Origin: a virus
Direction: 5' to 3' (one strand)
Virus record (IMG/VR): IMGVR_UViG_3300031452_000002
Length of the DNA: 64,000 nt
The notes under the pieces are model-generated. The model was not told the origin of the DNA, did no database searches, and worked only from the letters and a program-made list of their open reading frames with translations. Positions 25,443-47,012 of the stretch are shown piece after piece (the stretch's first letter is position 1; each line of letters begins with the position of its first letter). The position numbers and the translations under genes are program-made.

Positions 25443-25448
25443 ATCGGT

Positions 25449-25459
25449 AGTATACCACA
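25449..25459 (-). promoter_or_regulatory. Extended -10 promoter for tnpB
   Basis: TGTGGTATACT ending 6 nt before the ATG (likely leaderless). Confidence 0.5.
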
Positions 25460-25645
25460 AAAAGCATATATAACTAGTTTCTGAAAGGAGGGACCGCATT
25501 CCACCGCCTCCTTTAGGAGGCGGTGGAATGCGGGATTCTGCATGCCCCAGGAACGTTAGAGCATCGTGTCCCAAGCGACGACAATAACACATAGAAAGAC
25601 TAGGGGGCATGTCTTCAGCCTCCACTACGGTGAAAGGAAATTGTA

Positions 25646-25989: not shown

Positions 25990-27441
25990 ATGACGACAGA
26001 ACAAGCGGCAAAAACGCGGGGCGGCCAGCACGCCTACGTGCTAGCGACAATCCCGGTGGAGATGATCGAGATACAGGAGCAGATACGCCAAGATTGGGAG
26101 CACGACGACAGTGCGGAGAAGATGCGTGAACTCACGGAGACGGTGCGAGAATGGGGCATCTTGCAACCGCTCTTGGTCAAGCAGACCGGGGCTGCGAACA
26201 GGTATCGACTGGTGGCAGGGCATCGGCGCTACAAGGGCGCGCTGGAGGCGGGCGACCCGTTGGTGCCGTGCATGATTTGGAGCGGGAATGATAAGGATAT
26301 CCCGCTCATCCAGTTGATCGAGAACACGCAGCGCCAACATCTGTCGTTTGCCGACAAGGTAGCGGCGTTGCAAAAGTTGGTTGACGGAGATCGGTCATCC
26401 GCTTCCGTTGATCATGAGTGGAGTGTGCCACACGGTACGACCGCTAGAATCTTAAGGATAGCATGTCATCCAGTGTTGATGAGCGGGCTAACGCATGATT
26501 TGATTGCTGAGTCAACATCTGTGCTTGTCCTGAACTTACACGAGGACTATAGCGCGCCGCTCTATGATATGCTGCGCAACCATCAACGAGTAACAGAGGC
26601 GATGGTGCAGGAAGCGCGTCAACAGCAGGAACGGGATGGCATTGTAAAGGATGCTCACGTTCATCGACGCGGGCTAACTGATCACACGAAAGTACGTGTC
26701 GATGAGGTGGGGAAGTTAACGGAGCAGGGGCTAACGCTAGAGGAGATTGCGACACATCTAGGCATCTCAAAATCCCTAGCTTATCAGGATAAACAACGCT
26801 ATCAATATGGGCTTGTCAGTGAAACCCCACTCACGCAGCAAGCGTTGCGGTCACTGGTTATCGTTCTCTCCGCTGATGGATTGTCGCGGAGTGCGATTGC
26901 TATAAGAGCGGGTGTGGATCGAGCTGTAATTGATCGGATACTACGGGAGATTGAGCGCGACGCATCCGCGCCCGCCTCCAACTACTTCGCGCAACCCGAC
27001 TCCGACGCACCCATCCCAAACGCGGTGCGCTCGCCCTTGCCGCAGCGCACCGACAACCCGACTGCGCCGGATGCCGCACCGTCCCCTGTTCATACGCGCC
27101 CCACACATAGCCCCATCCTATGGGAAAACATGGATGAGGACATGCGGTTACAGACCAGGGATAACACAGGGCTCCCGGTCACGGTGGACACGCGCGATTA
27201 CCTTGTCAATGCGGTCCAGACAAAAGACGCGGAGCAAACAGGCGCGACGACAGCGCCGACCATCCCCCCGCGCTATGTGGCCGACCCGACACTGGCCGAC
27301 ATGACCGTCCTGCTGCGCAACCACTTGACGCCGCTGCTACGACTGCTGCAATGGGCAGGCGGGCACGGTATGAACGCGGCGCAACTCCACGACGAGATTA
27401 AGGATTTGTACGGCACAGAGTCGCGCCGACCAGTGGCGTGA
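25990..27441 (+). CDS. ParB/Srx-domain protein with additional HTH motifs
   Basis: GILQPLLV, YRLVAGHRRY, LIENTQRQHL; LTLEEIATHLGISKS and LSRSAIAIRAGV. Confidence 0.8.
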   Translation: MTTEQAAKTRGGQHAYVLATIPVEMIEIQEQIRQDWEHDDSAEKMRELTETVREWGILQPLLVKQTGAANRYRLVAGHRRYKGALEAGDPLVPCMIWSGNDKDIPLIQLIENTQRQHLSFADKVAALQKLVDGDRSSASVDHEWSVPHGTTARILRIACHPVLMSGLTHDLIAESTSVLVLNLHEDYSAPLYDMLRNHQRVTEAMVQEARQQQERDGIVKDAHVHRRGLTDHTKVRVDEVGKLTEQGLTLEEIATHLGISKSLAYQDKQRYQYGLVSETPLTQQALRSLVIVLSADGLSRSAIAIRAGVDRAVIDRILREIERDASAPASNYFAQPDSDAPIPNAVRSPLPQRTDNPTAPDAAPSPVHTRPTHSPILWENMDEDMRLQTRDNTGLPVTVDTRDYLVNAVQTKDAEQTGATTAPTIPPRYVADPTLADMTVLLRNHLTPLLRLLQWAGGHGMNAAQLHDEIKDLYGTESRRPVA

Positions 27442-27450
27442 TTAGGGAGG

Positions 27451-27496
27451 AGAAATCCAGTCAGTAGCCCACGGCTTTAGCCGTGTGGAGTGTCAA
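27451..27496 (+). mobile_element. Orphan IS200/IS605-type end hairpin 2
   Basis: TAGCCCACGGCTTTAGCCGTGTGGAGTGTCAA. Confidence 0.6.
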
Positions 27497-29634: not shown

Positions 29635-29912
29635 TAGACGACAACGAAACGTACACGGTGACGATGAGTGGCGGCTTGACCGAGGCCGGCAACGCCTACC
29701 TCGCTCAATCGTTGGCAAATCAGGCAGAGCGGTACAAGCAGGCGACGTGGATTGGCCCCGTTGAGGATGCTCCAACTGGCGGACTTGTGCGCCTCCAGTT
29801 CATGCTACGCGGCGACAGGCCCTACGCTATTGTCAGTTCGCCCGCGCAAGACGCTACGTGGGAACGACAGGCGCGTGAGATGGGGCTACCGCTCAGACCT
29901 CTATTACATTAA
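29631..29912 (+). CDS. Hypothetical protein
   Basis: ATGA coupling. Confidence 0.5.
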   Translation: MIDDNETYTVTMSGGLTEAGNAYLAQSLANQAERYKQATWIGPVEDAPTGGLVRLQFMLRGDRPYAIVSSPAQDATWERQAREMGLPLRPLLH

Positions 29913-30076
29913 CTACTACCACGGCCATGGCATGCACAGCGAAGGGGTTGTTAGCCCCGTCAAGTTTTGGTTTGTGTACCTGACGCAGTTCTGGCGCTTC
30001 CGACGCTGGCGCAACGTACTACGTGAGCATGACGATATGTGAACTTTCCTTGCATGCAATGCACTCAGCATGATAT

Positions 30077-30134
30077 GACATAGGGTATGGCAACGGGGTG
30101 ACACAACCGTCACCCCGTTGCCATACCCTATGTC
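30077..30134. repeat. Perfect 26-bp inverted repeat with 6-nt loop
   Basis: GACATAGGGTATGGCAACGGGGTGAC-ACAACC-GTCACCCCGTTGCCATACCCTATGTC. Confidence 0.85.
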
Positions 30135-30143
30135 GTAGGCGAA

Positions 30144-30734
30144 ATGGGAGGGATAGCGATGGTTGCGATGATAGACGAGAAGACGGTGACGCTGAGAGAG
30201 GCGGCGGATATAGCCTGTAAGGACAAGCGCACTATTCAGCGATGGATTGCCGACAAGAGCATCGGCGCGACAACAATACTCGACACGGGTGGTCAGCAGC
30301 AGACGCGGGTTAGCCTTGCCGATTTGCACCGTAAACTCGGTGTTGGTCTGCCGGAAATCCGTCAAGATGTCCCACACGACGGAATAAGAGCGCGCGATAT
30401 GGCTTATGGCAATGCCGACTCTATCATTGACCAGCCAAGCAATGTCGCGGTATCGGCGGGTTCCATGCAGATGCAGGCATTCGTGGCCGTTATTGGTAAG
30501 AGTGTCAGCGAGGGGATGACACCTCTTGTCGGAGAGTTGCATAGCGCCCATGCCGAGCACGCCGCGACCATTGAGCGAGCCGTCCGCGCCGAAACGAGCT
30601 ACGAAATTATGAAGCGGCAAAACGAACAGGCCGAGCAGCGCATACGCGATCTGGAAAATGTCGTGAGCCAAAGGTCTGGACGGGAGCGGCGACCATCTTT
30701 TGTTGCGCGGTTAGTGACATCTTTCGCGCATTGA
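30144..30734 (+). CDS. N-terminal HTH plus coiled-coil DNA-binding protein (start may be ATG 30159)
   Basis: VTLREAADIACKDKRTIQRWI; C-terminal heptad region. Confidence 0.65.
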   Translation: MGGIAMVAMIDEKTVTLREAADIACKDKRTIQRWIADKSIGATTILDTGGQQQTRVSLADLHRKLGVGLPEIRQDVPHDGIRARDMAYGNADSIIDQPSNVAVSAGSMQMQAFVAVIGKSVSEGMTPLVGELHSAHAEHAATIERAVRAETSYEIMKRQNEQAEQRIRDLENVVSQRSGRERRPSFVARLVTSFAH

Positions 30735-30749
30735 TGATTGGGCAGGGGT

Positions 30750-30800
30750 GACACGCAAGGGCCGACATGCCGTGACACGGCATGTCGGCCCTTGCGTGTC
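30750..30800. repeat. Perfect 24-bp inverted repeat with 3-nt loop
   Basis: GACACGCAAGGGCCGACATGCCGT-GAC-ACGGCATGTCGGCCCTTGCGTGTC. Confidence 0.85.
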
Positions 30801-31027
30801 TAGTCATGTCGTTCGGTAGGGTCGGGCGGCAGGAACACGTCTAATCCTCTCACTTGCATCTCGGCTACCGCGATTGGCAAGCCCTTGCGGAAGATGATGC
30901 GTGCCGTGTCATTCTTTTTCCGCTGATCAAATCCGGTAATCGCCATGACGGTTTCATATTCGGCTTCCGTGACGCGGATGCTGAACTGCCTGCTCAATCG
31001 GGCCTCCTCGTTGTTTGTGTCCGACAT
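30800..31027 (-). CDS. Small ribbon-helix-helix-like regulator
   Basis: RQFSIRVTEAEYETV...ARIIFRKGL. Confidence 0.55.
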   Translation of the reverse strand: MSDTNNEEARLSRQFSIRVTEAEYETVMAITGFDQRKKNDTARIIFRKGLPIAVAEMQVRGLDVFLPPDPTERHD

Positions 31028-31086
31028 GCATGCAATCCCCCCTTTGCCTGAACGATAGCACAGGATGCTCGCCGTCGGTGTGTGCC

Positions 31087-31115
31087 TTGCATACATTGCA
31101 TGCATGCTGTACTAT
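31087..31115 (+). promoter_or_regulatory. sigma70-type promoter for the conjugation-like operon
   Basis: TTGCAT-17 bp-TACTAT with TG at -14/-13 region; overlaps TGCATGCA. Confidence 0.6.
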
Positions 31116-31204
31116 ACCAAGTAACGGCGACGCGTTCCGGCTATGGGCTGTGGCTGTTGATTGCGTCGCCGCTACATAACATCTACGGCATGGAGGCAAG
31201 ACGA

Positions 31205-31777
31205 ATGAGGGGGACATCGCACCTAGCGACAGGCCTGGCGCTCGGCGCCACCGTGGCCGCGCTGACCCTGCCGCCGCTCCTCGTCGTGCCGTTCGCTCTT
31301 GTCGCCGGGGGAGCGGCGACCCTACCCGACCTCGACACGCCCAACTCCCTCGCATCCAAGGCCCTGCCGCCCGTGTCCGCTATCGTGTGCCATATCCCGT
31401 TCAACAAGCACCGACTCCTGACGCACTGGCTGGCGCTGTGGGTTCCGCTATCCGTCGCCGCCGTTGTCCTGACGGCGCTGTGGCCGCTCATACAAGATGC
31501 GGTGGTGGCGTTGTGTGTCGGCTACCTCGTCCATATTCTCGGCGACGCCTTGACGATTGAGGGTGTGCCCCTGCTCAATCCCAAGAAGCGCTGGCATCTG
31601 GTGCCGTGGTTCCATTTCCGGTCGGGTGGGTTCGTCGAAAAACCCGTGGTGGCGCTGGTCGTGCTGGCCTGTCTGGCAACGATGATCGGATACTACGTGC
31701 CTCAAGGGCGCGACGTGTATGCGACCGCTTTGGCGCATGTAGTGGTGCGGATACACGACCTGGCGGGGCGCTGGTAA
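31205..31777 (+). CDS. YdjM-like membrane metal-dependent hydrolase
   Basis: GTSHLATG, LPDLDTP, KHRLLTH, VHILGDALTIEGVP. Confidence 0.8.
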   Translation: MRGTSHLATGLALGATVAALTLPPLLVVPFALVAGGAATLPDLDTPNSLASKALPPVSAIVCHIPFNKHRLLTHWLALWVPLSVAAVVLTALWPLIQDAVVALCVGYLVHILGDALTIEGVPLLNPKKRWHLVPWFHFRSGGFVEKPVVALVVLACLATMIGYYVPQGRDVYATALAHVVVRIHDLAGRW

Positions 31778-31919
31778 TGTGTGCCATCGCCGTTTCCCTG
31801 TGTGGCCGTGTGGACGGTTTTCATCCACACCACACGGGCGTTTTCAGCTTGGTAGGTAAGCGTGTGTTTTCAATGTCTTGTAGGTGTGTGGGTCTGTCCA
31901 CGCGGGGGCGTGTGTAGCG

Positions 31920-32444
31920 ATGGCTCTCTCATCCTTACCGAAAACCGACGCCGCGAAGAAAGAGCGCGTGAACGTGTCACTGGCGTCTGACCTCTTGGAT
32001 GCGCTGGACAGCGAGGCGGCACGGCGCAAGATGGACCGTTCGGCGCTGCTGACGGAGTACGCGCGGACGGGCTTGCATGGCGGGGTGGCCCCGGCGCCAG
32101 TGGTGGTGAGCGCGCCGACGGCAGAGGAGAACGCAGCGGCCGTGGTGGACCTACTAACGAAAACATCTATGGTGGGCACGGTGGCCGCCGATCCTCTCTC
32201 GCCGTCACGGACGGCGCCCGATGACCAGGGAGACAAACTCAAAGCGATCTACGTGGCGGTGCTGACGCAGACGGAACTCGTGAAAGACGCCATCGCGGCG
32301 CGGCATATCGAGCGTGAGCGACGTGGTATCGTCGCGCGGCTCATGGGGCGGAAGCGTGCTCTTGTTGACGGAGTAACTGTCGTTGAGGACGCCTACGCCG
32401 TGGCGAAAGACAAAGCGCGTCGACAGATGGGACTCTCACAATGA
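31920..32444 (+). CDS. CopG/RHH-domain protein
   Basis: RVNVSLASDLLDALDSEAARRKMDRSALL. Confidence 0.7.
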   Translation: MALSSLPKTDAAKKERVNVSLASDLLDALDSEAARRKMDRSALLTEYARTGLHGGVAPAPVVVSAPTAEENAAAVVDLLTKTSMVGTVAADPLSPSRTAPDDQGDKLKAIYVAVLTQTELVKDAIAARHIERERRGIVARLMGRKRALVDGVTVVEDAYAVAKDKARRQMGLSQ

Positions 32445-34423
32445 AAGCACGTATGGCGGTGACGCTCGGTGGCGTGGCGTTGATGGCGGGTGGCGCCGTC
32501 GTGTGCCGGCCTGTGGCGGAGCATGTCTACCCTTCGTTGGCCCATGCGGCGCACGCGCTGACGATGCCTACGACGATGGATCATATCGACGCCGACAGGG
32601 TGACGCTCACGGCGACGTACAGGACGCTGCGGGGCGACGCGGTGTTGGGACAGGCTCCCGTGCCGGAAGGGGCGGGGGCGGCGCTCCTGGGACTGCTCAT
32701 CGCGTCTAGCGCTATCGGTGGCGGTATCGGCCAGCGACGGGCGCGGCGTGAGGTAGAGCGTGAGGCGCGCAAGAGCCTGGTGCGGTCGGCAGCCAAAGAC
32801 CGCATCGACCCGGAGAAGCAAGAGGAGCGGGCGTTGGTCGCACGGCGCGAGGCGGAACGGCAACGCATCCTGACCAAAGAAGGCTGGTATGCATCAAACA
32901 CAGGCGGGTGGTATCTCGGCATTGAGAAAGAGTCGGGAAAGGCGCTTTCTTTGCCACGCGACATTCAGGCCCAGCATCCGCTTGTCAACGGCGGCAGTGG
33001 TAGCGGGAAGACGCTTCGCTTTCTCATTGGATGGGTGCTTGGCGAGGCGCTTTTGCAGGTAGCGCTACGTGCGTCGCTCATCGTCATCGACCCCAAAGAC
33101 GGGGGCGAAATAACGCGCAAGACAATTGCCGTCATGCGGCGCGCTGGTTACCGGGTGTGGGTGTATGATCCGTACGCCGTCGGTTCCGTCCGTTTCAACG
33201 CGGCGTCGATCTATGAAGACCCCGAAGGCGTCGAATCGATGGTCGAGGCGTGGGTGAGGTCGATGGGCGATTTCCATTCGTACTTCGGGCCGATGACGGT
33301 CGCCCTCGTGGCCGGCGTGCTCTTGTACTTGCGCGACGTAGAACGCGCGAAAAGCGACGGTGACTGGCGCCGTGTGTCGATGGCCGACGTGGCGGCATGG
33401 AACAGGACGCACGAAACTATCGAGACCGCCGAAACCATCGTGGCCCACGTCGCGGCCCAGCGGGACGCGGGCCAGTCCGATCCAACGATTGAGGGGCTGG
33501 CGCGGCAGATGACGGAGCTGATTGGCTCCAAGGGCGCGGCGTCAAACGTCATGGGCGGTGTCACCTTGCGGCTCAAGTGTCTCAACAATCCGCGCGTCGC
33601 AGCGTCAATGGCCGGCAACGACATCGACTGGGAGGAGTTCGTGCGTGTGCCGACGATCCTGTACATGGCGATTGATCTAGGCACAGCTAAGACCATTTCG
33701 CCGGTCATTGTGACGGGACTGACGGCCACCAAGGACGCGCTGTCACAGGTAGCGGCGCGGCATGGCGGGCGCTTGCCGCGGCCCGTGCGGTCGTTGACCG
33801 ATGAGGCCGTCAACATTGGCAAGATCGACGGGCTACCGACCATTGTCTCGACGGCACGCAGCATCGACTACGGGTTGGGGTTTGCCACACAAGGGCCGAA
33901 GGACATCAAGCGCGAGTACGGCACGCAGGGTGACCGCGTGATGACCTCATTGCTGACACATATCGTGCTCGCGCAGTCGAACGATGACGATCTGGAGCAC
34001 TACACCGATGCGCAAGCAGGCGTCAAACTGGACGATCTGAAAGAACGGGACGGGGCCTATATCCGACGTGCGGGGCTGCGACCGACCTACGTCCAGACGC
34101 GCCTGTGGTTCCGCGACAAGCGGCTGGTGGCGCTCGTCAAGGCAGCGGGCACGTATACGAAGGTCGATGCGCTGCGGGAGCAATTGGCGATTCAGCAGGC
34201 GGGCATGAACCGTGTCGTGGCCGACGTGCCCGTGACGATTGACAAAAAAGCGGCGAAAGCGGAAGCGAAAAGCAGTAGGACATATACGCCACGTCCGACC
34301 GACGAGATAAAAAGCGACGGCGATGTGGAGAGAGAAGGAGGATGGGGTGATGTAGACGACGGCGACGGGGCGGTGTGGGGCGATGGTGAGTTGGTGGAGG
34401 CCCACGCGTTGGCGTGGGACTAG
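32441..34423 (+). CDS. virD4: Type IV coupling protein (VirD4/TraG-like)
   Basis: N-terminal TMs; VNGGSGSGKT, VIDPKDG, TDEAVNIGKI, FATQ. Confidence 0.85.
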   Translation: MKARMAVTLGGVALMAGGAVVCRPVAEHVYPSLAHAAHALTMPTTMDHIDADRVTLTATYRTLRGDAVLGQAPVPEGAGAALLGLLIASSAIGGGIGQRRARREVEREARKSLVRSAAKDRIDPEKQEERALVARREAERQRILTKEGWYASNTGGWYLGIEKESGKALSLPRDIQAQHPLVNGGSGSGKTLRFLIGWVLGEALLQVALRASLIVIDPKDGGEITRKTIAVMRRAGYRVWVYDPYAVGSVRFNAASIYEDPEGVESMVEAWVRSMGDFHSYFGPMTVALVAGVLLYLRDVERAKSDGDWRRVSMADVAAWNRTHETIETAETIVAHVAAQRDAGQSDPTIEGLARQMTELIGSKGAASNVMGGVTLRLKCLNNPRVAASMAGNDIDWEEFVRVPTILYMAIDLGTAKTISPVIVTGLTATKDALSQVAARHGGRLPRPVRSLTDEAVNIGKIDGLPTIVSTARSIDYGLGFATQGPKDIKREYGTQGDRVMTSLLTHIVLAQSNDDDLEHYTDAQAGVKLDDLKERDGAYIRRAGLRPTYVQTRLWFRDKRLVALVKAAGTYTKVDALREQLAIQQAGMNRVVADVPVTIDKKAAKAEAKSSRTYTPRPTDEIKSDGDVEREGGWGDVDDGDGAVWGDGELVEAHALAWD

Positions 34424-34450
34424 CAGAACAGGACGAGAAGGGGTGTGGGA

Positions 34451-34738
34451 ATGGACTGGGCGACACAACCGATCAACGATTTACTGCTTATCTTGAGCAT
34501 CGTCGCGGGGGGGGGGGCTATTATCTGCCTGATGAAGATTATCCCCCATGCGACGCAACTGGGGACGAACACGGGGCAGTCAATCAAGGGCATCGGGTTC
34601 GGGATTGCCGGCGTCCTGCTCTGTATCGCGGTAGCCGGCGGAACGCTGATTCACTTGGCGCAGACGGCGCAGGCGCCGGCGACGGTGCAGAACCCGATCT
34701 CGAACACGGGCGGGTCAAATGCCCCTGCTAAACCGTAA
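34451..34738 (+). CDS. VirB2/pilin-like small membrane protein
   Basis: Two TM helices; position between VirD4 and VirB3/VirB4. Confidence 0.55.
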   Translation: MDWATQPINDLLLILSIVAGGGAIICLMKIIPHATQLGTNTGQSIKGIGFGIAGVLLCIAVAGGTLIHLAQTAQAPATVQNPISNTGGSNAPAKP

Positions 34739-34794
34739 GAGATCAGCGCGGCGTCGTTCGCCGATAAAAAAGCGTCGCTGAAAAGGGATAACTG

Positions 34795-35235
34795 ATGGAT
34801 GACGATATGATCGCCCCAGAGCAGGCGCTATCCCGGCTTGACCGGCCCTTGGTGCAGTGGGGCTTGAAGTGGAACCCTCATCAGGTTGTGGCGGTCGGGG
34901 GAGCGTTGGTCGTGGGCGCGGCTTGGACGCTCGGATGGGTGTTGTGGGGCGTGGCAACGAACATGTTCATGACGCTAGAGGGGTTACGCGTCATGCTGCC
35001 GTGGCTGGCCGCGCCGTGGGTCCTGTTGCTGATGGGGGGGTGGTATGGCAAGCGCTTGCTGCGTGACGGGGTGGAACCCGTCGCGCGTCAGCGCTGGGCG
35101 CGGCGCTATCGCCTTTTACGCGTCCCCATCCGCGTAGACACCCGTCTTTTTGCTGTGCCGTGGCTCCGCGTGAGGCAGGGCGTCGTGCGGTCAACCGTAT
35201 CGGCGCCCCGTCGCCGACAGAAAGGGCGTCGGTAA
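34795..35235 (+). CDS. PrgI/VirB3-like membrane protein
   Basis: Two TMs then basic tail; directly upstream of VirB4. Confidence 0.55.
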   Translation: MDDDMIAPEQALSRLDRPLVQWGLKWNPHQVVAVGGALVVGAAWTLGWVLWGVATNMFMTLEGLRVMLPWLAAPWVLLLMGGWYGKRLLRDGVEPVARQRWARRYRLLRVPIRVDTRLFAVPWLRVRQGVVRSTVSAPRRRQKGRR

Positions 35236-35278
35236 ACTTTCCCACGGCTAAAGCCGGGGGTCTCCTGGAGGTTCTTAG
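35232..35278 (-). mobile_element. Orphan IS200/IS605-type end hairpin 3
   Basis: GTAAACTTTCCCACGGCTAAAGCCGGGGGTCTCCTGGAGGTTC on plus strand. Confidence 0.6.
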
Positions 35279-37702
35279 ATGATCGCCGACTATATCAACC
35301 TCGACCGTCGGCCGACGCGCTTGCCCGTGCGTCTGTGGCGCGACGTGGCCTACCCACCACTGCTCCACCCGATTGTGACGGTCGACGATGCGGGGGTAGC
35401 GCGTGTGGCAAGCGACGGCGAGTACCGCGCCTACCTTGACGTATCGGGAGTCATCCTGCGCGGCAAGGACACAACCGAGCGTGCGACGGCGCGCGCCCGA
35501 CTGGCCGATATCCTGCGCCTGGCGCGCGCCGGGCAGCGTATCCAGATGTGGGTAAACAACACGCCGACCGACGCCTGGGGGGTCGCGGCGGCGTTGGATC
35601 GCGCCGAGGACGCGGATGGCGCCCTGCACGACGTCATCCGCGCGGGCCGCCATCGGTGGCTGGGCGCGGAGATGGCGCGGACCTACATGGCCACGGCGCG
35701 CTATCTCTTGGTGATCGCGGGGCGTGACAAAGGGCCGCTGCTGGCGCGGCGAGAGGACATCGCGCGGTTGTTAGGTGTGGTGGGCGCTGCCGTGCGGCCC
35801 TTGGTGCGCGCGGAGGTCGAGGCACTGACGCGTCTGCCGGCCGCGTTGGATGGATTGCGTGCGGGCGCCGTGGTCGTGGATGGAGAGTGGCGCACGACGC
35901 TATGGGTGCGCGCGTGGGCAGCGACTGTCTCGTTTGATGACCTGCTCTCGCTGCCGCTACTGCCCGTGCGCTCCACCCTCTCCATCACGGCACGCGGACG
36001 TGACCAGGCGGCGTCCCTGGCGTGGCTGGAGGGGCAGGCCACGCGTATGCGCGCCTCGGACCTTAACAAGAGGCGTGCCATTGCCCGCTCCACCGTCAAA
36101 GACGGCCTGGTGCTCATCACGCAGGAGCAGGGCGACGTGGCCTTGCAGCGGGACGCGGCTGAACTAGACGCGCTCTATTTGGAGGCGCGGGCCGGACGCG
36201 CGGCGCTGGTCGATGTCGGTGTGGCGCTGACGCTCCACGCGCCCGACTCGGTGGCGCTGGAGGATGCGGTGGACGCTGCCCTGACGGCGCTACGCCCGCT
36301 AGGGTTCACGGTTGAACCGGGGCTGGAGGCGCAGGCGCCGCTCTATCGCGCGTCGTTGCCGCTGGCTTTAGCGCCCTACCGTCCACTCGCGCTGACAGAC
36401 AAAACGGCGTCGGCATTGTTCCCGTTTGTCAAGGAGGCGCCTGGGCCCGCGGATGGTATTTTGTTGGGGCGCACGGAGCGCGGTGGGCAGTTGGCCTTTT
36501 TCGACTGGGGACAGACAGCGGCCGATGTCGTGGCGATCTTGGCCGACCAAGGCATGGGCAAGAGCTACGTCATGGGGTTGTTGCTCGACGCCACGTTGCG
36601 ACGACAGGGTTGGGTGACGGTGCTCGACCCGGTGGGCAGTTTTACCGACCTCATCGAGGGTCACGGTGGGGTAGAGGCTGAATTGCTCGCGCCGGGTGTG
36701 AGCATCAATCTGCTCGACCTCGCACGCCGTTCTAAGGGCGACCCCACGCTTATCATGCTTGACAACTTCCAAATCTTGTTCGGCTACGACCTGACGTCCG
36801 CTGGCGATGACGCCATTCTGGAGCAGGGCTTGCGCGCCGTGTACGCCGCGGCCGCGCGCCGCGCCGCGCGCGGCTGGGACGGGACGCCGCGTTTACGCTA
36901 TCTGGCGGCATGGCTGCGGGGCCAGGAACGCAAGGCGCGCGCGGCGAACGATCAGACTGAGGCGCAAGCGTGTCGCAAGTTATACCAGCGCATGCGCTCA
37001 TACTATGGGCACGGGTCATTCGCGTCGCTCATGGACTATCCGACAACGGTGGATCTCGAAACATCGGGCCTCATCCTCAACACGGCGCGCTTCGCCATGA
37101 ACGAGGCGGGGGCAGCGCGCCTCTCGGCCGTCGTGGCGACGACGACGGCCGACCTGCGCACCGCGCTGGCGGAACGGGCGGGGACCTACGCCGTGACGGC
37201 GCTCGATGAGGGGTACGGGACGATTAAGCAGTCGGGGCCGTGGTTGCAGGGGCGCGGGCGCCGCAATCGCCACGAGCGCACCAAGGTCCTCCTCGCCACC
37301 CACATGGTTGAGGACTTGGCGAACGATCCCGAAACGCGTAAGATCATGACCGCTATCAAAATATACTTCGTGGGTTGCACGCAGAGCGGGCGCGCCGCGC
37401 TGATTGACCACCTGCGCTTTCCGGCCCGCCTTGTGGAGCGTGCGCCGGACCTGCGGCGCACCGACGAACGTGCCGAGTTCGTGTACCTCGTGCGGCCTCC
37501 CGACCGGGCGCCGGAGTACGCCGTGATTCACGTCAAACTCGTGCCGGAGCTGGCCTATACACTCGGCAGCTACGGACCACAGAAAGATCAGCGGGCGCGG
37601 GACATCGCGCGCTATGGGTCGGTCGCCGACGCCGCGCGTGCTTTCGTGGCGGGGACGGACGAAACCGGCGGCGGTGACGATAAAAGGGTGGGTGTCGCAT
37701 GA
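35279..37702 (+). CDS. virB4: VirB4/ConE-like ATPase
   Basis: EAQAPLYRASLP, GILLGRT, ADQGMGKS, TVLDPVGSF, ALDEGY, LATH. Confidence 0.8.
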   Translation: MIADYINLDRRPTRLPVRLWRDVAYPPLLHPIVTVDDAGVARVASDGEYRAYLDVSGVILRGKDTTERATARARLADILRLARAGQRIQMWVNNTPTDAWGVAAALDRAEDADGALHDVIRAGRHRWLGAEMARTYMATARYLLVIAGRDKGPLLARREDIARLLGVVGAAVRPLVRAEVEALTRLPAALDGLRAGAVVVDGEWRTTLWVRAWAATVSFDDLLSLPLLPVRSTLSITARGRDQAASLAWLEGQATRMRASDLNKRRAIARSTVKDGLVLITQEQGDVALQRDAAELDALYLEARAGRAALVDVGVALTLHAPDSVALEDAVDAALTALRPLGFTVEPGLEAQAPLYRASLPLALAPYRPLALTDKTASALFPFVKEAPGPADGILLGRTERGGQLAFFDWGQTAADVVAILADQGMGKSYVMGLLLDATLRRQGWVTVLDPVGSFTDLIEGHGGVEAELLAPGVSINLLDLARRSKGDPTLIMLDNFQILFGYDLTSAGDDAILEQGLRAVYAAAARRAARGWDGTPRLRYLAAWLRGQERKARAANDQTEAQACRKLYQRMRSYYGHGSFASLMDYPTTVDLETSGLILNTARFAMNEAGAARLSAVVATTTADLRTALAERAGTYAVTALDEGYGTIKQSGPWLQGRGRRNRHERTKVLLATHMVEDLANDPETRKIMTAIKIYFVGCTQSGRAALIDHLRFPARLVERAPDLRRTDERAEFVYLVRPPDRAPEYAVIHVKLVPELAYTLGSYGPQKDQRARDIARYGSVADAARAFVAGTDETGGGDDKRVGVA

Positions 37703-39468
37703 TGTGTGTGAGGCGTCGGGTTGAACGCACGCTCGCGTGGGCGGCGCTGGCGGTGATGTTGTGTGGCGCGTCGTCATCCATGACGGGGCACGCGCATGCG
37801 GCCACGTCGCCTCCGCCCACGGCCATCCCCCCCACGGCCACGGTGGCGCCACAGACGGGCCAGTTAATCCTAGGGCAGCAGCACATCCCTCAGGGCACGA
37901 CGACGCTGGACGCGGCGGTGAGCCAGTTCCGCGAGGGGCAGCGCGTGACGTTTACGTGGGCGCGCGACAATGGGGCGACCGCCCCCATCGGGTCGGCGTT
38001 GGTCGGCGTCGGCGGGTCGGCCACGACGCAATTGACGTTGCCGACGGACGCGCCGGCGGCGACCTACACCGTCACGGCGACCGGGAATCGTGGCGACACG
38101 GCCACGGCATTTGTGACGGTGGATGCGCCGGGCGCGACGCCCGCGCCGACGGCGCTATCCTACAGCCCGCGCCTTATCGCGCCGCCATCGTTCACCCACG
38201 GCATTAGCACGACGGCGGGCACGTCCGGCAACGGCGACCAGTTGCCCATTCGCGTGTTAGGCTTCCCGCCCCATGCCACGCTCCATATCACTCTCCAATT
38301 ACTGGCGCACGGGCCACACGCCACCGTCGACGGCGGGAACTTCGGGCCGACCGACGCCACGGGCGCGGCGGCGGGCGACGTGGCGTTGCCTGCCGACCTG
38401 CCACCTGGCCCCTACGACGTGGAGGGGACGGTGGGGACCGTGAAGACGGGCGCTACGGTGCAGATCCAGGCGACGGTCGCCGATCAGGTCGCGGGGTGGG
38501 ATAGGAACGTGTTCGCTGGCCTGTGGGCCAATGCCACGGAGGGCTTGCTGACGTGGTGGCAAGGTGTGACGACGGCGGGGCACGCCGCGTTGGTGCACGC
38601 CATCCTGGGGGTCACAACAGTTGTCCTTGATTTCACATCAGCGGCCTATGCCTTTCTGTTCGACCTCTCCAAACCGCTATTGGTGTGGGGCGGCGCCGCG
38701 TTGTTCGTCCTCGTGAGTTTCCGCATCCTAGCCGAGGCGGTGACGATGCGCGCGGAAGCGGATGGCGCGCATCACGTCCTGAAGTGGGGGCTGCTGATCG
38801 GAGAGGTGGCTATTGTCCTAACGGTAGCGGGCGCGCTCAAACCCATCGAGCATGCCGTATGGGCGTGGACAGCCGGCTCTCCGAAGGGTTTGGGCGGTGG
38901 GGCGAAAGGACTCAAGGGGTACGGAGACGCCCTGGGGACGTGGACGACCTATCGCGGCCCCTCGCTCCAAGAGACCGCCAACTGGGGGTTGGGCCAGATC
39001 GCGGCGCTGTGCCTGCTGGCTATCCTCGCCATTCAGTTGGTGTTGCTGACCCTAGGCGTGTTGGCGGGATGGGTACTCAAGCTATTTCTATGGCTCACAG
39101 GACCACTGTGCTGGGCGGCGATGGGGACGCCACATACACGTCCCCTCGGCTTATGGTGGACGCGCTCCATGATCAGTGTGTCGCTGTGGATTGTCGGATG
39201 GATGTATCTTTTTTCCGTTGAGGGAGCGGCGGTGGGGCAGGTCGCGCGGGGAGGTGGGCTGGACCCGGCGAAAGCGCCGAACACGCTGGTCGCCATTGGT
39301 GTCGGCCTCGTGATGATGCTCTCGACCAACGCCGTGCCAGCGGCGCTGCGACGCGGGACGCATCTCCTGATCGCGGGAGCAGGCGGCGTCGTGGACGAGA
39401 TGGCCGGGCCGGGCGGCGCTGTGTGGGGCTGGGCCAAGAACAAGGTGCCGTTGTTAGGGAGGTTATAG
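37699..39468 (+). CDS. VirB6-like polytopic membrane protein with secreted beta-rich N terminus
   Basis: Signal peptide, Thr/Ala/Gly-rich domains, about 7 hydrophobic segments, TGPLCWAAMGTPHTR. Confidence 0.6.
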   Translation: MMCVRRRVERTLAWAALAVMLCGASSSMTGHAHAATSPPPTAIPPTATVAPQTGQLILGQQHIPQGTTTLDAAVSQFREGQRVTFTWARDNGATAPIGSALVGVGGSATTQLTLPTDAPAATYTVTATGNRGDTATAFVTVDAPGATPAPTALSYSPRLIAPPSFTHGISTTAGTSGNGDQLPIRVLGFPPHATLHITLQLLAHGPHATVDGGNFGPTDATGAAAGDVALPADLPPGPYDVEGTVGTVKTGATVQIQATVADQVAGWDRNVFAGLWANATEGLLTWWQGVTTAGHAALVHAILGVTTVVLDFTSAAYAFLFDLSKPLLVWGGAALFVLVSFRILAEAVTMRAEADGAHHVLKWGLLIGEVAIVLTVAGALKPIEHAVWAWTAGSPKGLGGGAKGLKGYGDALGTWTTYRGPSLQETANWGLGQIAALCLLAILAIQLVLLTLGVLAGWVLKLFLWLTGPLCWAAMGTPHTRPLGLWWTRSMISVSLWIVGWMYLFSVEGAAVGQVARGGGLDPAKAPNTLVAIGVGLVMMLSTNAVPAALRRGTHLLIAGAGGVVDEMAGPGGAVWGWAKNKVPLLGRL

Positions 39469-39470
39469 CG

Positions 39471-39917
39471 ATGCGCAGGGACGATACGGCTGTCGATGAT
39501 GACCGATGGCGCGGCAGACATGAGCGGTTGTGGCGTCTGTTGGGCCACCTGTGGGTGACGTTGCTGATCCTGTGCCCGCCGTTGGTGGTGTGGGTTGAGA
39601 TATGCGACGGATACGACGCGTGGCGACTGGTCGCGCGCAACTTGGAGTTGACTGAGCGCCGCGCTGGTGTCCTAGCACTCTCGCTGCTGAGTGGGATCGT
39701 CGGCGCGGCATTGGCCGGGGGGAGTGAGTCGATGGCGGGAATAGCGATACTGGCGGTGTGTGGCGTCGGGGCCGGGTGGGTGATGTCGCGACCCTACCGA
39801 CGCACGATCATGGCTGTGCGGCGCGGACAAGCGCCCGTGGCAGCGGTGCGCCAAGCTCAGGCGGAGGTGGAGCGCGTGCTGACCGCTGCGACGACGGGCG
39901 ACCGCTGGGAGAGTTAG
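39471..39917 (+). CDS. Membrane protein
   Basis: Three hydrophobic segments; SD GGAGG. Confidence 0.55.
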   Translation: MRRDDTAVDDDRWRGRHERLWRLLGHLWVTLLILCPPLVVWVEICDGYDAWRLVARNLELTERRAGVLALSLLSGIVGAALAGGSESMAGIAILAVCGVGAGWVMSRPYRRTIMAVRRGQAPVAAVRQAQAEVERVLTAATTGDRWES

Positions 39918-39938
39918 CCGGCCCGGGGAAACGGCGCG

Positions 39939-39963
39939 AAGCCATTAGCCGTGGGAGTATCAA
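39939..39963 (+). mobile_element. Orphan IS200/IS605-type end remnant 4 (internally deleted)
   Basis: GAAGCCATTAGCCGTGGGAGTATCAA; shares GTGGGAGTATCAA with 23170-23182. Confidence 0.5.
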
Positions 39964-39985
39964 CTGAATAGAAAGGGACGCACAC

Positions 39986-41167
39986 ATGACCATGAGGAAA
40001 AGAACTATCATTCGTACCGCGGTCGTCATAGCGACCATCGTCCCCGCACTGTGGGGAAGTAGCGCGGCGCTGGCATGGCATGGCGGCATCCAACCGCCGA
40101 CCGAACGCTGCACCGGCACACAACCGACTGAGACATTCAGCGGCGTCGTGGACCCGCCGAGCGGCCACTGGCGCATCGTCATCACCGGCTTTGCCACTGG
40201 CTCTAACGGATCGTCGTCGCTGTCTGTCACCTTCATACCGGCGACGGACGGGACGTTCACGACGCACCCCGTTGAGCTGCATCCCGGCACCTACACCGCT
40301 ACGCTCGGGTCTGACGATCCCCACACGACCACGATCACGCCGCAACAATTCGTGGTGATGGCGTGCACCACGCCGACCGCGACGCCGACCGCGACGCCCA
40401 CGACGGTCCCAACGAATACCCCGACCGACGCGGCAACGGCGTCGCCCACCCCAACCATGACCGCGACGCCTACGACGACGCCCACGACGACGCCCATGAC
40501 GACGCCCACACAAAGCGCCACGGCGACCGCTAGCCCCAGCGCGACCGCGACCGTCCTCTCGGCAACGGCGACGGCCAGTCTGACCGCCACGGCGACAAGC
40601 GCTCCGTCATCCACGGCGACGATGACCGCGACGGCGACAGCAACTGTCGCCATGCCCACGCTACGGACGCCAGCGCGCCTACCCGCGTTGTGTGCGGCCC
40701 AGTTGGACTTTGTGGCCGGGCTGCCCTCCATGAAAGGACGGTATGCCGCGCGCTTCATCGCCGGCGGACTCGGCGAGGGTCCCTGCGCGTCCGGCGCTGC
40801 CAGCGCGCCGCCCGTGGGCGTCATCCGGGGCGAGACCATCTTCACGTCGGCCCGCGCGTGCGTGGACCGCCGAGCGGTCACGCGCTACGTTTTCGCGGTC
40901 ACACGTCCCCACGCTCTACGCCCCGTCGCGTCGTTGCACCTGCTTGGCCTGGTGCGGCCCGGTGAAACGGTCTGGGTCACGTTCACCGTGGGCCATCTGC
41001 CGGCAGGGTGCGCGGCGGTACGCCTGACGCTGGCCTCATACGTGGCCGTGTCCACGCGCCTGGCCGACCGTGAGCGCCAGGTGCTGTACCAGTACCAAAC
41101 GGGCGACTTCAAGCCGGGCACGCATCGACTGGCCCTGTCCGTGGCCGTGCCGGCCCTGCGCCCCTAA
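39986..41167 (+). CDS. Secreted/surface protein with Thr-Ala-Pro linker
   Basis: Signal peptide ending AALA; long TPTATPT low-complexity linker between two domains. Confidence 0.7.
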   Translation: MTMRKRTIIRTAVVIATIVPALWGSSAALAWHGGIQPPTERCTGTQPTETFSGVVDPPSGHWRIVITGFATGSNGSSSLSVTFIPATDGTFTTHPVELHPGTYTATLGSDDPHTTTITPQQFVVMACTTPTATPTATPTTVPTNTPTDAATASPTPTMTATPTTTPTTTPMTTPTQSATATASPSATATVLSATATASLTATATSAPSSTATMTATATATVAMPTLRTPARLPALCAAQLDFVAGLPSMKGRYAARFIAGGLGEGPCASGAASAPPVGVIRGETIFTSARACVDRRAVTRYVFAVTRPHALRPVASLHLLGLVRPGETVWVTFTVGHLPAGCAAVRLTLASYVAVSTRLADRERQVLYQYQTGDFKPGTHRLALSVAVPALRP

Positions 41168-41238
41168 TGGATGGACCGCACCGGCACAGAGCCTGAGAAG
41201 GGCGCGACGCTACTAGCCAATACCGTACATACGGCAGC

Positions 41239-41276
41239 AGAGGCCCTATCCCCGCGCAGGGATAGGGCCTCTTTTT
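41239..41276 (+). terminator. Intrinsic terminator ending the conjugation-like module
   Basis: AGAGGCCCTATCCC-6-GGGATAGGGCCTCT followed by T run. Confidence 0.8.
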
Positions 41277-41281
41277 CGCGC

Positions 41282-41354
41282 GAAAAGATCTTTCGCCGAA
41301 CGCTTGACAAGGACACGATAGCGTGTTATTATTAGAGAGTGAGGGGCGACTGAG
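41282..41354 (+). promoter_or_regulatory. 73-bp repeat copy 1, strong sigma70 promoter
   Basis: TTGACA-17 bp-TATTAT with ACACG-4-CGTGT in the spacer; identical to 42227-42299. Confidence 0.85.
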
Positions 41355-41392
41355 GCTCCTCGCAGGCAGATAGATGAGGAGAGGGTACTGAC

Positions 41393-41735: not shown

Positions 41736-42228
41736 CAATAATCATGATGATCTGCTCACCCTTTCCGAGGCCGCCACCATCAGCGGCTTGTCCGCCGCGA
41801 CGCTGCGCAGCTACATCCTCGGCCGGCGCGGTACGGAGGACAGGCCCCCGAAGCCTCCCGTGCTCACGGGCGTCAAGCGTGGCTCACGCTTGTTGATGGT
41901 GCGCCGCGCCGATCTCGACGCCTACCTCGCGGGACGGACGCGCCGCGTCTATGGCGCGTCCGACGAGGAGGACGATACGGGCAACCTCACGATACGCGAT
42001 GTCGCGCGGCTGATGGGGGTCACGCGTCAGCGTGTCCATCAAATTATCGCGCGTGGCGATCTGCGCGTTGCTGTCGATTCACACGATGGGCGACGGGTGG
42101 ACATCGCGCGCGCTGATGTCGACGCGTACATGGCGGGACGGACGTGGCGCGCCGGCCGCATCAAACGCCCCGACCGCGCCAAGCCATCCCCGGTCCCAGC
42201 GGAGACGAGCGCCGACAGCGGCACCTGA
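41728..42228 (+). CDS. Tandem HTH_17 (excisionase-like) protein
   Basis: LLTLSEAATISGLSAATLRSYI and LTIRDVARLMGVTRQRVHQII. Confidence 0.75.
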   Translation: MADNNHDDLLTLSEAATISGLSAATLRSYILGRRGTEDRPPKPPVLTGVKRGSRLLMVRRADLDAYLAGRTRRVYGASDEEDDTGNLTIRDVARLMGVTRQRVHQIIARGDLRVAVDSHDGRRVDIARADVDAYMAGRTWRAGRIKRPDRAKPSPVPAETSADSGT

Positions 42229-42299
42229 AAAGATCTTTCGCCGAACGCTTGACAAGGACACGATAGCGTGTTATTATTAGAGAGTGAGGGGCGACTGAG
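42227..42299 (+). promoter_or_regulatory. 73-bp repeat copy 2, strong sigma70 promoter
   Basis: Identical to 41282-41354. Confidence 0.85.
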
Positions 42300-42362
42300 A
42301 CCCCTCCCAAGCCCTCCTCTCGACGGAGGGACGGCCCGGAGTAGGGCAAGGAGCGACGACCG

Positions 42363-42735: not shown

Positions 42736-42780
42736 GTCACTGACCCGCGGCTAAAGCCGGTGGGCTTCCTGGGAGGTTCC
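42736..42780 (-). mobile_element. Orphan IS200/IS605-type end hairpin 5
   Basis: GTCACTGACCCGCGGCTAAAGCCGGTGGGCTTCCTGGGAGGTTCC; close relative of 35232-35278. Confidence 0.6.
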
Positions 42781-43727: not shown

Positions 43728-44609
43728 ATGAGCCTTGGACATGATGCACTGTACGCGACACTGATAGGTCACACCGACGACGGAGGCGCCGACGACCCGT
43801 TTGACGCCGCGTCGCCAGCCACGACCACCGACCGCTGGGAGCGCGTGATCGCCGCCCATCGCGCCGAGACCAAGGAAGCAGAGGATCGCGCCGAGACCAA
43901 GGAAGCAGAGGATCGCGCCGAGACCAAGGAAGCAGAGGATCGCGCCGAGACCAAGGAAGCAGAGGATCGCGCCGACGAGGAGCACAAGGCGTCGGCTTTC
44001 CCCGGCACCTATGTCGTCCGCGACAAATACGAGTCGGGCGTTATCCTCCTCGGCGACAAAAAGGGCGCGGTGTCCTTCCCGCGTCCGAACGCCCCGCTTC
44101 TGATCGGCCCGCTGGGGACGCCGGCCCTCTCCGGCCAGGTGCTGACCTACCTTGAAGGCCCGCCGGAGGACGACGACCCCGACAAAGCCCTTTCTGTTAA
44201 GCGTCTGCTGAAGGCCATGGACCGCCTCCGCGACGACGATCCCCAGGCGTTCCTGGTCGTCGCCGCCCGTTTTGGGTTGATCGACCGTGAGGGCAACGAG
44301 GGTAAGGGGACGTGGGGCGATACGCTGTCGTGGGCGGAGATCGCTGACCGTTTCGCTGTTCCACCGTCCACGGCGCGCGACGCTGTGGCGCGGTTCGTGG
44401 AGCGCATGGCGGACGTGGCGCCGCTGGCCCGTGCCGCCGAGTTGGAGCACGGCGCCGCCGCCAGCGGCGCTATCGACCCCGCCGACCTTCCGCCCGCGCC
44501 GTGGCGCGCGCCTGAGGACGCGCCGTTTACCATGCCGTCGCCACTAGACGTGTATCGCCATAAGATGCGCACGAAGGCAAAGCGCGACGCCTACGAACGC
44601 GGCGCCTAA
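43728..44609 (+). CDS. Putative late-gene regulator with sigma70 region 4-like HTH
   Basis: LSWAEIADRFAVPPSTARDAV; last gene before the packaging operon. Confidence 0.55.
   Translation: MSLGHDALYATLIGHTDDGGADDPFDAASPATTTDRWERVIAAHRAETKEAEDRAETKEAEDRAETKEAEDRAETKEAEDRADEEHKASAFPGTYVVRDKYESGVILLGDKKGAVSFPRPNAPLLIGPLGTPALSGQVLTYLEGPPEDDDPDKALSVKRLLKAMDRLRDDDPQAFLVVAARFGLIDREGNEGKGTWGDTLSWAEIADRFAVPPSTARDAVARFVERMADVAPLARAAELEHGAAASGAIDPADLPPAPWRAPEDAPFTMPSPLDVYRHKMRTKAKRDAYERGA
43858..43975. repeat. 27-bp exact tandem repeat, about 4.4 copies, in frame (RAETKEAED)
   Basis: ATCGCGCCGAGACCAAGGAAGCAGAGG x4 plus partial. Confidence 0.9.
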
Positions 44610-46430: not shown

Positions 46431-47012
46431 ATGTCCAAGCAACAAAAGAAGCCCTCCGATGAGGACGTGCAACGCGATGCCCACATGGATGCTGTGTGGG
46501 AGATGAAGCGTGATGCGTGGACGTACCGTGATATCGCCGCGCAACTGTCCCTCAGTGTTGGAGTGGTTCACAAGTACTATCATGCACGTCTTGCGGAAGC
46601 GCAGGACAAACGCACGCAAGAGCACGCTGCCGACATCGCTTTAGAGAATGAGCGCTATGACGCATGGACGCGCTCCCTGTCCTCGCGTACGAAGTTCAGT
46701 GATCCACAGGCCATCGTCGTTGCGCTCGCCATCTCTAAAGAGCGTCGGAAGCTCAATGGGTGGGACGCGCCGACGCGCGTGGCCCATGAGGGCAAGGACG
46801 GTGGCGCTATCGCGCACACGGTCATCCAGCGCGAGGAGACGCCCGAGGAGGCGTTCGCGCGCTTGACGGACCCCGTAGCGAGGGAAGCGTACATTGAACG
46901 CATCAGCGCCGTCCATAGCGCCCAGCAGCACCTTATCGAGCTACAGCGCCAACTCGGACTTCCTCACCAATCAACTGCTGCTCAAGTGGACGCTGGCGCA
47001 CCGCCTGATTGA
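46431..47012 (+). CDS. Terminase small subunit (HTH type)
   Basis: WTYRDIAAQLSLSVGVVHKY, ERRKLNGWDAP; precedes TerL. Confidence 0.7.
   Translation: MSKQQKKPSDEDVQRDAHMDAVWEMKRDAWTYRDIAAQLSLSVGVVHKYYHARLAEAQDKRTQEHAADIALENERYDAWTRSLSSRTKFSDPQAIVVALAISKERRKLNGWDAPTRVAHEGKDGGAIAHTVIQREETPEEAFARLTDPVAREAYIERISAVHSAQQHLIELQRQLGLPHQSTAAQVDAGAPPD

Follow-up and report, generated by a model that had tools for sequence, protein, structure and literature searches.

The 64,000-nucleotide stretch analysed here (the window) comprises bases 841-64840 of a 79,181-bp virus record, IMGVR_UViG_3300031452_000002, whose source habitat is rock metagenomes; coordinates are those of the window, and genes lie on its plus strand, unless stated otherwise. 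From 31.9 to 39.9 kb the window carries a block of type IV secretion system (T4SS) genes encoding, in this order, a ribbon-helix-helix (RHH) protein, VirD4, a protein with two transmembrane (TM) helices, a VirB3-like protein, VirB4, a VirB6-like protein and a 3-TM protein. Phage replication and ParB genes lie to the left of the block, and the genes for the small and large terminase subunits (TerS and TerL), portal and capsid lie to the right. Judged by its gene content, the block is a minimal T4SS operon of the monoderm kind that resides in a tailed phage. The main new result of this study is that the same gene order recurs in three further divergent phage-like lineages, which we designate B, C and D.

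The VirD4-type coupling protein (32441-34423; 660 amino acids, aa) has two N-terminal TM helices, the Walker A sequence GGSGSGKT and an acidic C-terminal tail. It matches the Pfam families T4SS-DNA_transf (2.8e-17) and TraG-D_C (1.9e-8) and the NCBIfam CD1115-type VirD4 profile (1e-31, a score that lies far below the curated family cut-off). VirB4 (35279-37702; 807 aa) has the Walker A sequence DQGMGKS and the Walker B sequence LDEG, intact and invariant among relatives, and matches the NCBIfam CD1110-type and TraC-F profiles (both 1e-10, likewise far below cut-off) and DUF87 (8.6e-6). The ESM Atlas model of VirB4 aligns with VirB4/TraG-P-loop clusters over some 720-750 residues with TM-scores of 0.81-0.85. 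The original prediction for this stretch, which had named both ATPases by their Walker A motifs, is borne out by Pfam and NCBIfam profiles for VirD4 and by NCBIfam profiles and the fold match for VirB4. Its PrgI/VirB3-like gene (34795-35235; 146 aa) proves to be VirB3-like, as the product is 50% identical (E = 5e-34) to the first 125 residues of 936-973-aa VirB3-VirB4 fusions in four relatives. The gene it called pilin-like (34451-34738) encodes a small, conserved protein with two predicted TM helices, with 52-56% identical homologues at the same position in two short contigs, L005 and L006; no evidence for a pilin was obtained. Two RHH genes had also been proposed. The first, at 31920-32444 (174 aa), matches Pfam RHH_1 above the cut-off (2.3e-5; 24.6 bits vs 20.5), while the second, a divergently transcribed gene for a 75-aa protein at 30800-31027 on the minus strand, is RHH-like by eye only and matches no Pfam family. 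A small minus-strand gene occupies the equivalent position in lineages B, C and D.

The gene proposed as VirB6-like (37699-39468; 589 aa) encodes a signal peptide, two immunoglobulin (Ig)-like domains and a helical, polytopic C-terminal half, with 5-7 TM helices in all. Its position, topology and conservation speak for the proposal, since it follows VirB4 in every lineage with 28-54% identity. Searches added only weak leads, by ESM features, to TrbL families (0.76-0.79); the protein has no Pfam match and no PDB sequence match, and a Foldseek search with its model returns Ig-domain proteins only. The 148-aa 3-TM protein that follows (39471-39917) is 54% identical in L006, and proteins of similar size and topology come after VirB6 in lineages B, C and D. 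ATGA overlaps join the RHH gene to VirD4 and VirB4 to the VirB6-like gene, and these, the phage orientation of the block and its place between phage genes had all been noted correctly in the original prediction. An intrinsic terminator (41241-41276, plus strand), with a GC-rich 13-bp stem followed by TTTTT, closes the block and a strong promoter lies beyond it, making the block a single operon.

As expected of the monoderm-type T4SS that had been proposed, VirB7, VirB9 and VirB10 have no matches among the scanned window proteins. Neither a VirB8-like (NTF2-fold) protein nor a VirB1-like wall hydrolase was recognised in the block by Pfam, NCBIfam or PHROGs sequence profiles; SLT and M23 domains occur only in tail proteins (the tape measure, in the case of the window phage) or adjoining the block in lineage B. 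PADLOC yields one weak, partial P-loop match to VirD4 (mad8, 6.5e-5) and no other defence-model match. Together, the profiles support a real VirB4/VirD4-based set of the monoderm kind, a class that is read from gene content.

Relatives of the block were found by way of protein collections, after which their long contigs were walked; pattern searches of genome contigs and viral contigs returned no VirB4 relatives. VirB4 of lineages B, C and D is 25-41% identical to that of the window, and phage genes (portal, terminase or tail) are in reach of the block in two of the three. Lineage B (80.6 kb; VirB4 40% identical) encodes an RHH-like protein, VirD4, a small TM protein, a VirB3-VirB4 fusion, a VirB6-like protein and a 3-TM protein. 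Here the block adjoins tail genes and is convergent with the tail module and head genes, the phage proteins including a tape measure (phrog_28, 1.5e-33), a baseplate wedge protein (phrog_6, 4e-30), M23/SLT lysins, a Portal_Mu portal and an S49 protease. A capsid candidate in this lineage was dropped, its ESM Atlas score being only 0.77, in favour of the PHROG and Pfam hallmark matches. For lineage D (L032/L033; 62-92 kb), JGI, ENA and NCBI data supply over 20 contigs. The gene order is the same, and some 6.5 kb separate the VirD4-VirB3/4-VirB6 genes from TerS-TerL-portal, which follow downstream on that strand. Relatives carrying terL together with virB4 and virD4 in this order, which the original prediction had proposed to look for, are thus found in lineage D, and in lineage B the block stands beside tail genes.

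In lineage C (111.5 kb) no phage hallmark gene is in reach of the block, and a gene is held in common with the tail-side module of lineage B. Its VirD4 is part of a 963-aa fusion (L030:3758-6649) in which a YdjM-type domain (residues 6-167) precedes the VirD4 region (411-773), a Rosetta-stone link that ties the hydrolase to the machine. The window encodes a YdjM-family membrane-bound metal-dependent hydrolase (31100-31777; Pfam YdjM, 1.8e-23) ahead of the RHH gene, and L006 has a homologue upstream of the block. L005 and L006, with VirB4 68-69% identical to that of the window, are too short for judging whether they are phage or not; L005, a 14-kb contig with the closest VirB4 (69%), has ParA/ParB adjoining the block. 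Outside the T4SS, the window has one or two small genes in common with B, C or D. This near-absence of other shared genes implies that the same operon sits in unrelated phage backbones.

The family is a rare one. When window VirB4 was searched by tblastn, no match was found in 72,556 plasmids and none, at 1e-5, in 50,697 phage records. VirB4 matches amount to only 5 protein clusters (90% identity) in 5.8 billion proteins, and those of the VirB6-like protein to only 17 representatives (50%-identity clusters) in 1.84 billion; the Atlas cluster of the latter is labelled 91% viral. Ratios of nonsynonymous to synonymous substitution (dN/dS) lie between 0.10 and 0.47 for all five core genes, rough values because synonymous sites are near saturation, and by this measure purifying selection acts on the core genes. 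Together with the recurrence in unrelated phages, it makes a better argument for long co-residence than the orphan IS605 ends on which the original prediction relied, as these were not confirmed; the repeat search shows just two families of short repeats that the block shares with the DNA outside it. As far as the lineages compared allow, the conserved core consists of the RHH protein, VirD4, the 2-TM protein, VirB3, VirB4, the VirB6-like protein with its two external Ig-like domains and the 3-TM protein, with a YdjM-like protein often attached. The gene identities, the operon structure, the phage linkage described below, the recurrence in other phages and the purifying selection support this picture directly, and on comparative evidence the operon is a stable, selected part of several unrelated rock-community tailed phages, not a passenger.

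The record itself is a tailed phage (Caudoviricetes), with TerL, portal (weak), capsid, HK97 gp10-like protein and tape measure on one molecule. From left to right, the phage genes encode a serine recombinase, DNA methylases, PrimPol, a RepO-like initiator, a DnaC-like loader and the DnaB helicase, then TnpB and a ParB-like protein (25990-27441; Pfam ParB_N, 8.5e-17), to the left of the T4SS block. On its right follow TerS, a gpA-type TerL (47029-48552; Pfam GpA_ATPase, 9.5e-22), the portal (48917-50659), which has weak Phage_portal_2 and Phage_portal matches below cut-off and holds the canonical place after TerL, and a Mu-gpT-like major capsid protein (60182-61420; Pfam Phage_capsid_4, 5.1e-37). 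Past the window end come the genes for the HK97 gp10-like protein and for the tape measure, which has 1150 aa and includes an SLT domain. The phage is probably temperate, judging by the large serine recombinase on the minus strand at the left contig end, which is full length at 657 aa and is the sole recombinase found.

Several observations show that block and phage belong to one molecule. Identical VirB4 occurs on nine long contigs, seven of them with the same neighbours. A contig of 71 kb, assembled from a different sample, matches 29800-31300 at 100% identity and extends through the block as far as TerL. Depth over phage, block and phage is even in three runs (93/103/105, 11/12/14.5 and 37/40/42). 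K-mer contigs from four runs do break, at 29940/46, 31265, 31614, 41311/25, 42256/70, 42777 and 43887, and most of these sites are repeats (an 86-bp duplication, a 27-bp tandem repeat and a short intergenic repeat); paired-end assemblies span the breaks at the block edges. All contig joints examined have sides of 20-22 nt and none cleanly deletes the block, and they were not read as module-less variants. The GC content of the block (0.64-0.68) is not distinguishable from that of the rest of the phage (0.57-0.70). Two TerL relatives without the block, L008 and L010 (51-59% identical), were rejected as controls for a phage minus the module because TerL is the only gene they share with the window. 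The contig is not an assembly chimera, and the chimeric edges that the original prediction had named as fatal to it are absent, as the 71-kb contig and the even depth attest. The other outcome it had named so was close relatives in which the module is a separate integrative and conjugative element (ICE) with integrase and attachment (att) sites of its own; the window block itself shows no such element. No integrase occurs in 29-46 kb and the repeat search found no direct repeats bracketing the block, again as claimed; with no integrase, no relaxase and no flanking att repeats, the block is not a nested ICE.

Further genes and elements surround the core. The block may be headed by a candidate regulator of 191-196 aa (30159-30734), a helix-turn-helix (HTH)/coiled-coil DNA-binding protein with weak HTH_17 and HTH_29 matches below cut-off, which is called in an independent contig as well and is not conserved in the other lineages compared. 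Just upstream of it, the repeat search found a near-perfect hairpin with 29-nt arms that are 97% complementary (30074-30137), a candidate operator, cruciform or transfer origin, and a perfect hairpin with 25-nt arms lies between convergent genes at 30750-30800. In two of the three runs, depth over the segment 29946-31265, with the HTH gene and the two hairpins, is some two thirds of that of the adjoining contigs (64 vs 93-103; 25 vs 37-40), which hints that part of the population has a different cassette. At the other end, the surface protein of the original prediction is confirmed as a secreted or anchored protein of 393 aa (39986-41167), with a signal peptide, a Thr/Pro-rich linker and tandem repeats in the coding sequence. 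It has no homologue in the other lineages compared and by that comparison is accessory and lineage-specific.

Beyond the terminator, an 86-bp sequence is duplicated with 95% identity (41282-41367 and 42227-42312, the second copy 945 bp on). Each copy heads a small-gene cassette past the T4SS terminator and provides a promoter close to consensus, TTGACA-17-TATTAT, whose spacer contains a palindrome. The two short intergenic repeat families common to the inside and outside of the block, the only ones found, comprise one at 35236-35263 and 42739-42766 (and, on the minus strand, 27471-27483), which holds the mini-palindrome GGCTAAAGCC, and one at 23159-23182 and 39940-39963, CGTGGGAGTATCAA, which stands about 20 nt ahead of two start codons. 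The 27-bp tandem repeat (43831-43992; about 5 copies, encoding DRAETKEAE units) lies within a gene for a 293-aa protein (43728-44609), at which short-read contigs break. The product has 302 aa, one unit more, in a contig of another sample, so that the copy number of the repeat varies in the population.

Other features concern the phage backbone and the relatives. In the TerS/TerL region (46431-47031) the TerS stop codon is at 47010-47012, and GTG 47029, 17 nt later, is the likeliest start of TerL. A start at TTG 46894 was rejected, the 507-aa form from GTG 47029 being the one called in other contigs; with the GTG start, a long TerS/TerL overlap and the idea of recoding become unnecessary. The TnpB gene (24279-25625, minus strand), between the methylase region and ParB, is intact and encodes 448 aa with OrfB_IS605 and a Cas12f1-like TNB domain. 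Its closest genome matches are 30-34% identical (an Acidimicrobiaceae metagenome-assembled genome and others), and weak VirB4 matches occur in only 7 of 401 sampled genomes from the phylum of that Acidimicrobiaceae genome; DnaB is at most 41% identical to proteins from many phyla. None of these comparisons identifies the host. Three genes resembling GIY-YIG/NUMOD3-type homing endonucleases are scattered in the late region (54856-55590; 61479-62813, minus strand; and L012:8382-9575, minus strand). A small gene of about 78-110 aa is 59-68% identical in three phages that have otherwise only T4SS genes in common, at 64378-64644 in the window, at 66777-67109 in contig B and at L032:12667-12903, the last just downstream of the lineage D T4SS operon. 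About 3 kb upstream of that operon, L032:1035-1274 encodes a protein of the Acb2/Tad1-hairpin family, sponges that act against cyclic-nucleotide defence signals.

What the machine might move is suggested by three features found in all four lineages. The gene directly upstream of VirD4 encodes an RHH-like N-terminus; the C-terminal tail of VirD4 is acidic and has Trp as its final or penultimate residue (...LAWD, ...DIDRW, ...DDLSW and ...DDFW); and arrays of short direct and inverted repeats lie upstream of the RHH gene. In the window, this intergenic array (31778-31919) consists of iterated GTGTGG/CCACAC repeats and inverted repeats, a candidate RHH-binding array and candidate origin of transfer (oriT), and in lineages B, C and D the RHH gene is likewise preceded by arrays, of the TGGATGG type. 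In the F plasmid, the RHH protein TraM, bound at oriT, docks on the acidic, Phe-ended tail of TraD. Since RHH protein, repeats and acidic VirD4 tail resemble the TraM-TraD arrangement, a DNA substrate would, by analogy, be favoured.

On this model, the RHH protein would bind the repeat array upstream of its own gene and dock on the acidic, Trp-containing tail of VirD4. VirD4 and VirB4 would then drive phage DNA, or a DNA-protein complex, through a membrane channel formed by VirB3 and VirB6 and into a touching neighbour cell. The outcome would be a virion-independent, contact-dependent spread in dry, biofilm-like rock habitats. The docking, the DNA substrate, the direction and timing of transfer and the processing of DNA without a recognisable relaxase are the steps that we infer. 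That the operon encodes a functional translocon belonging to the phage is highly probable, and we place the probability of the full mechanism, in which the T4SS moves phage DNA between cells, at roughly 0.4. Only tentatively do we suggest that tailed phages with a second, conjugation-like means of self-transmission are seen here for the first time. Their genome would exit either in virions or via its own VirD4/VirB4 channel into a touching neighbour, a non-canonical enzyme would stand in for the relaxase, and the T4SS lineage would be phage-specific and kept in several unrelated backbones of phages of rock-dwelling bacteria.

The points that weigh against DNA transfer begin with the relaxase. 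None of any MOB family is among the Pfam matches of about 70 larger open reading frames (ORFs) across the 79-kb record, no HUH motif occurs in its unannotated ORFs, and Pfam scans of lineage B (about 57 kb) and of the 20-kb regions around the block in C and D list no relaxase either. Of the components in a CONJScan-style definition, VirB4 and coupling protein are present and no relaxase was found, although a novel one may exist and the record is incomplete; by the usual rule, a T4SS that lacks a relaxase does not count as conjugative. Two ORFs considered as relaxase candidates were discarded after empty PDB sequence searches: 3869-4960 (363 aa), Arg/Ala/Gly-rich and without matches, looks like an out-of-frame artefact of GC-rich DNA, and 43728-44609 is the repeat-containing acidic protein described above. 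The window block has no identified VirB8-like protein or dedicated cell-wall hydrolase, and the label of the 589-aa protein as VirB6-like is a weak one, given by position, topology and feature-level leads in place of demonstrated homology. The RHH protein and its repeat arrays could serve mere operon autoregulation; a complex prediction for the RHH protein with soluble VirD4 (score 0.00, partner pLDDT 47) speaks neither way. Finally, the record is incomplete, as distal tail and lysis genes are missing because the contig ends about 1.2 kb past the tape measure. The temperate phage spreading by contact that had been proposed therefore holds good as regards a T4SS built into a phage, and conjugative spread, with no relaxase and no proven oriT found in the 79 kb of this record or in about 57 kb of lineage B, is plausible but only inferred.

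The strongest competitor, which we consider unlikely but worth serious attention, is that the block is a VirB4/VirD4-powered channel of the lytic or early programme that moves proteins or other macromolecules during infection, such as effectors destined for neighbouring cells, factors of the cell wall or surface, or components of superinfection exclusion, by analogy with SPP1 gp31.1, gp31.2 and gp32. The absence of a relaxase from the Pfam listings of all lineages fits such a translocon, as do the place of the block among early and middle genes, its nearness to an anti-defence gene in lineage D, the external Ig-like domains of the VirB6-like protein and the surface protein downstream. The SPP1 cassette, being dispensable and carried by a virulent phage (PMC6316719), also points to a role during infection and not to lysogen-to-cell transfer, and so counts against DNA transfer in the window phage too. 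The SPP1-type ATPase has, however, no BLAST-level relation to window VirB4, and no candidate effector is conserved across the lineages compared. A VirD4-type protein whose docking tail is conserved, with an RHH gene and repeat arrays ahead of it in every case, is also the layout of DNA-transfer systems.

We think it improbable that the block is a DNA release or uptake machine of the Neisseria gonococcal genetic island (GGI) or Helicobacter ComB type, changing gene flow in the community with no directed transfer of the phage. A T4SS core and coupling protein with no recognisable relaxase would suit such a machine, and extracellular DNA may well matter in desiccated rock biofilms, given the rock metagenomes from which the phage comes. 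ComB-type uptake systems, however, are not known to have VirD4, which is present and conserved here, the GGI release system uses a relaxase, and no competence-type genes turned up in the window scans. An equally improbable proposal is that the block is a passenger without a role for the phage, either a captured plasmid or ICE remnant or part of a phage-ICE or phage-plasmid composite. The plasmid-like setting of the closest VirB4, next to ParA/ParB in L005, can be cited for it, as can the breaks of short-read contigs near both block edges (29940/29946 and 41311/41325) and the frequency of phage-ICE tandems, of which 612 have been reported (PMC13651849). The edge breaks, however, coincide with repeats (the 86-bp duplication and the 27-bp tandem), depth is even across them, and paired-end assemblies bridge them. 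A passenger would also be hard to reconcile with a block that sits mid-genome between replication and packaging genes in phage orientation, has no second integrase, relaxase or flanking att repeats, keeps all its genes intact with dN/dS well below 1, recurs in three other unrelated backbones and has no match in the plasmids searched. Almost negligible is the idea that phage and T4SS DNA from different replicons were joined in assembly. The metagenomic origin and the breaks of k-mer contigs at the two edges speak for it, but the 71-kb contig of a different sample matches the window exactly through the left edge and goes on unbroken to TerL, seven of the nine long contigs with the gene keep the same neighbours, depth co-varies in three runs, and the arrangement was assembled independently in lineages B and D (D from both JGI and ENA data).

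Accounts of self-driven gene transfer keep phages and conjugative elements apart as its two routes. The present T4SS operon, with both VirD4 and VirB4, is conserved and under selection in three or four unrelated tailed-phage genomes at the least, and its recurrence is of interest in that spread by conjugation has yet to be demonstrated for any phage. It makes testable the question of whether, in settings such as dry rock biofilms that hinder the diffusion of virions, a phage can spread by cell contact and without them. Should it not do so, the operon still defines a phage-specific T4SS lineage that is invisible to BLAST searches of plasmids and phage records, and it may help to explain the VirB4-like cassettes of SPP1 and other model phages, which have long been a puzzle. 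In practice, mobile-element classifiers that use VirB4 and VirD4 as plasmid or ICE markers can mislabel such phages.

Among known systems, the block is most readily set beside the monoderm T4SSs of pCF10 (Prg/Pcf), ICEBs1 and the Clostridioides CTn elements, with their VirB4 CD1110 and VirD4 CD1115 families. Like these, it has VirD4, VirB4, a VirB3-like protein, a polytopic protein after VirB4 and an RHH accessory-type protein beside the coupling protein, and lacks VirB7, VirB9 and VirB10; it differs in that no relaxase, VirB8-like protein or dedicated wall hydrolase is identified and in that it resides in tailed phages. The likeness to F TraM-TraD, an RHH protein beside a coupling protein with an acidic, aromatic-ended tail (Trp here) in four lineages, is one of analogy only. 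Phage-plasmids such as P1 and N15, and the prophage Phi1207.3, blur phage and plasmid lifestyles in a comparable way; the window phage has ParB, but no ParA or plasmid replication module. Phi1207.3 is not known to have T4SS genes. Called a 'conjugative prophage', it transfers in matings (PMC4260502; PMC5154133). According to a 2025 review, no phage or phage-plasmid is known as conjugative. Phage-ICE tandems of Streptococcus and others also place phage and conjugation genes on one DNA stretch, and co-transfer has been proposed for them, but their authors stress an arrangement 'rather than a hybrid element' (PMC13651849). Those are two complete adjoining elements, each with its own integrase, whereas the window has an operon without integrase or relaxase inside a single phage.

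The nearest precedent is the SPP1 gp31.1-gp32 cassette. The literature searched gave no example of VirD4, VirB3/4, VirB6-like proteins and an RHH adaptor kept together as a full set across phages, but SPP1 gp32 is a precedent for an ATPase of the conjugation type in a phage. According to the proposal made for SPP1, gp31.1, gp31.2 and the TrwB/VirB4/FtsK-like gp32, also present in GBK2, make up a membrane translocon of macromolecules; the cassette is dispensable, belongs to a virulent phage and has no established role (PMC6316719). As in the window, a phage-encoded VirB4-like ATPase and small membrane proteins are grouped in a non-late operon (PMC6316719). SPP1 (virulent, 44 kb) differs in having one ATPase and no separate VirD4, VirB3 or VirB6-like protein. 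The tblastn search of phage records with window VirB4, SPP1 included, was empty, and no PHROG match was found. Nevertheless, a structural cluster of viral P-loop_TraG proteins matches window VirB4 with a TM-score of 0.82, so that a distant, fold-level relation to the SPP1/GBK2 type is possible.

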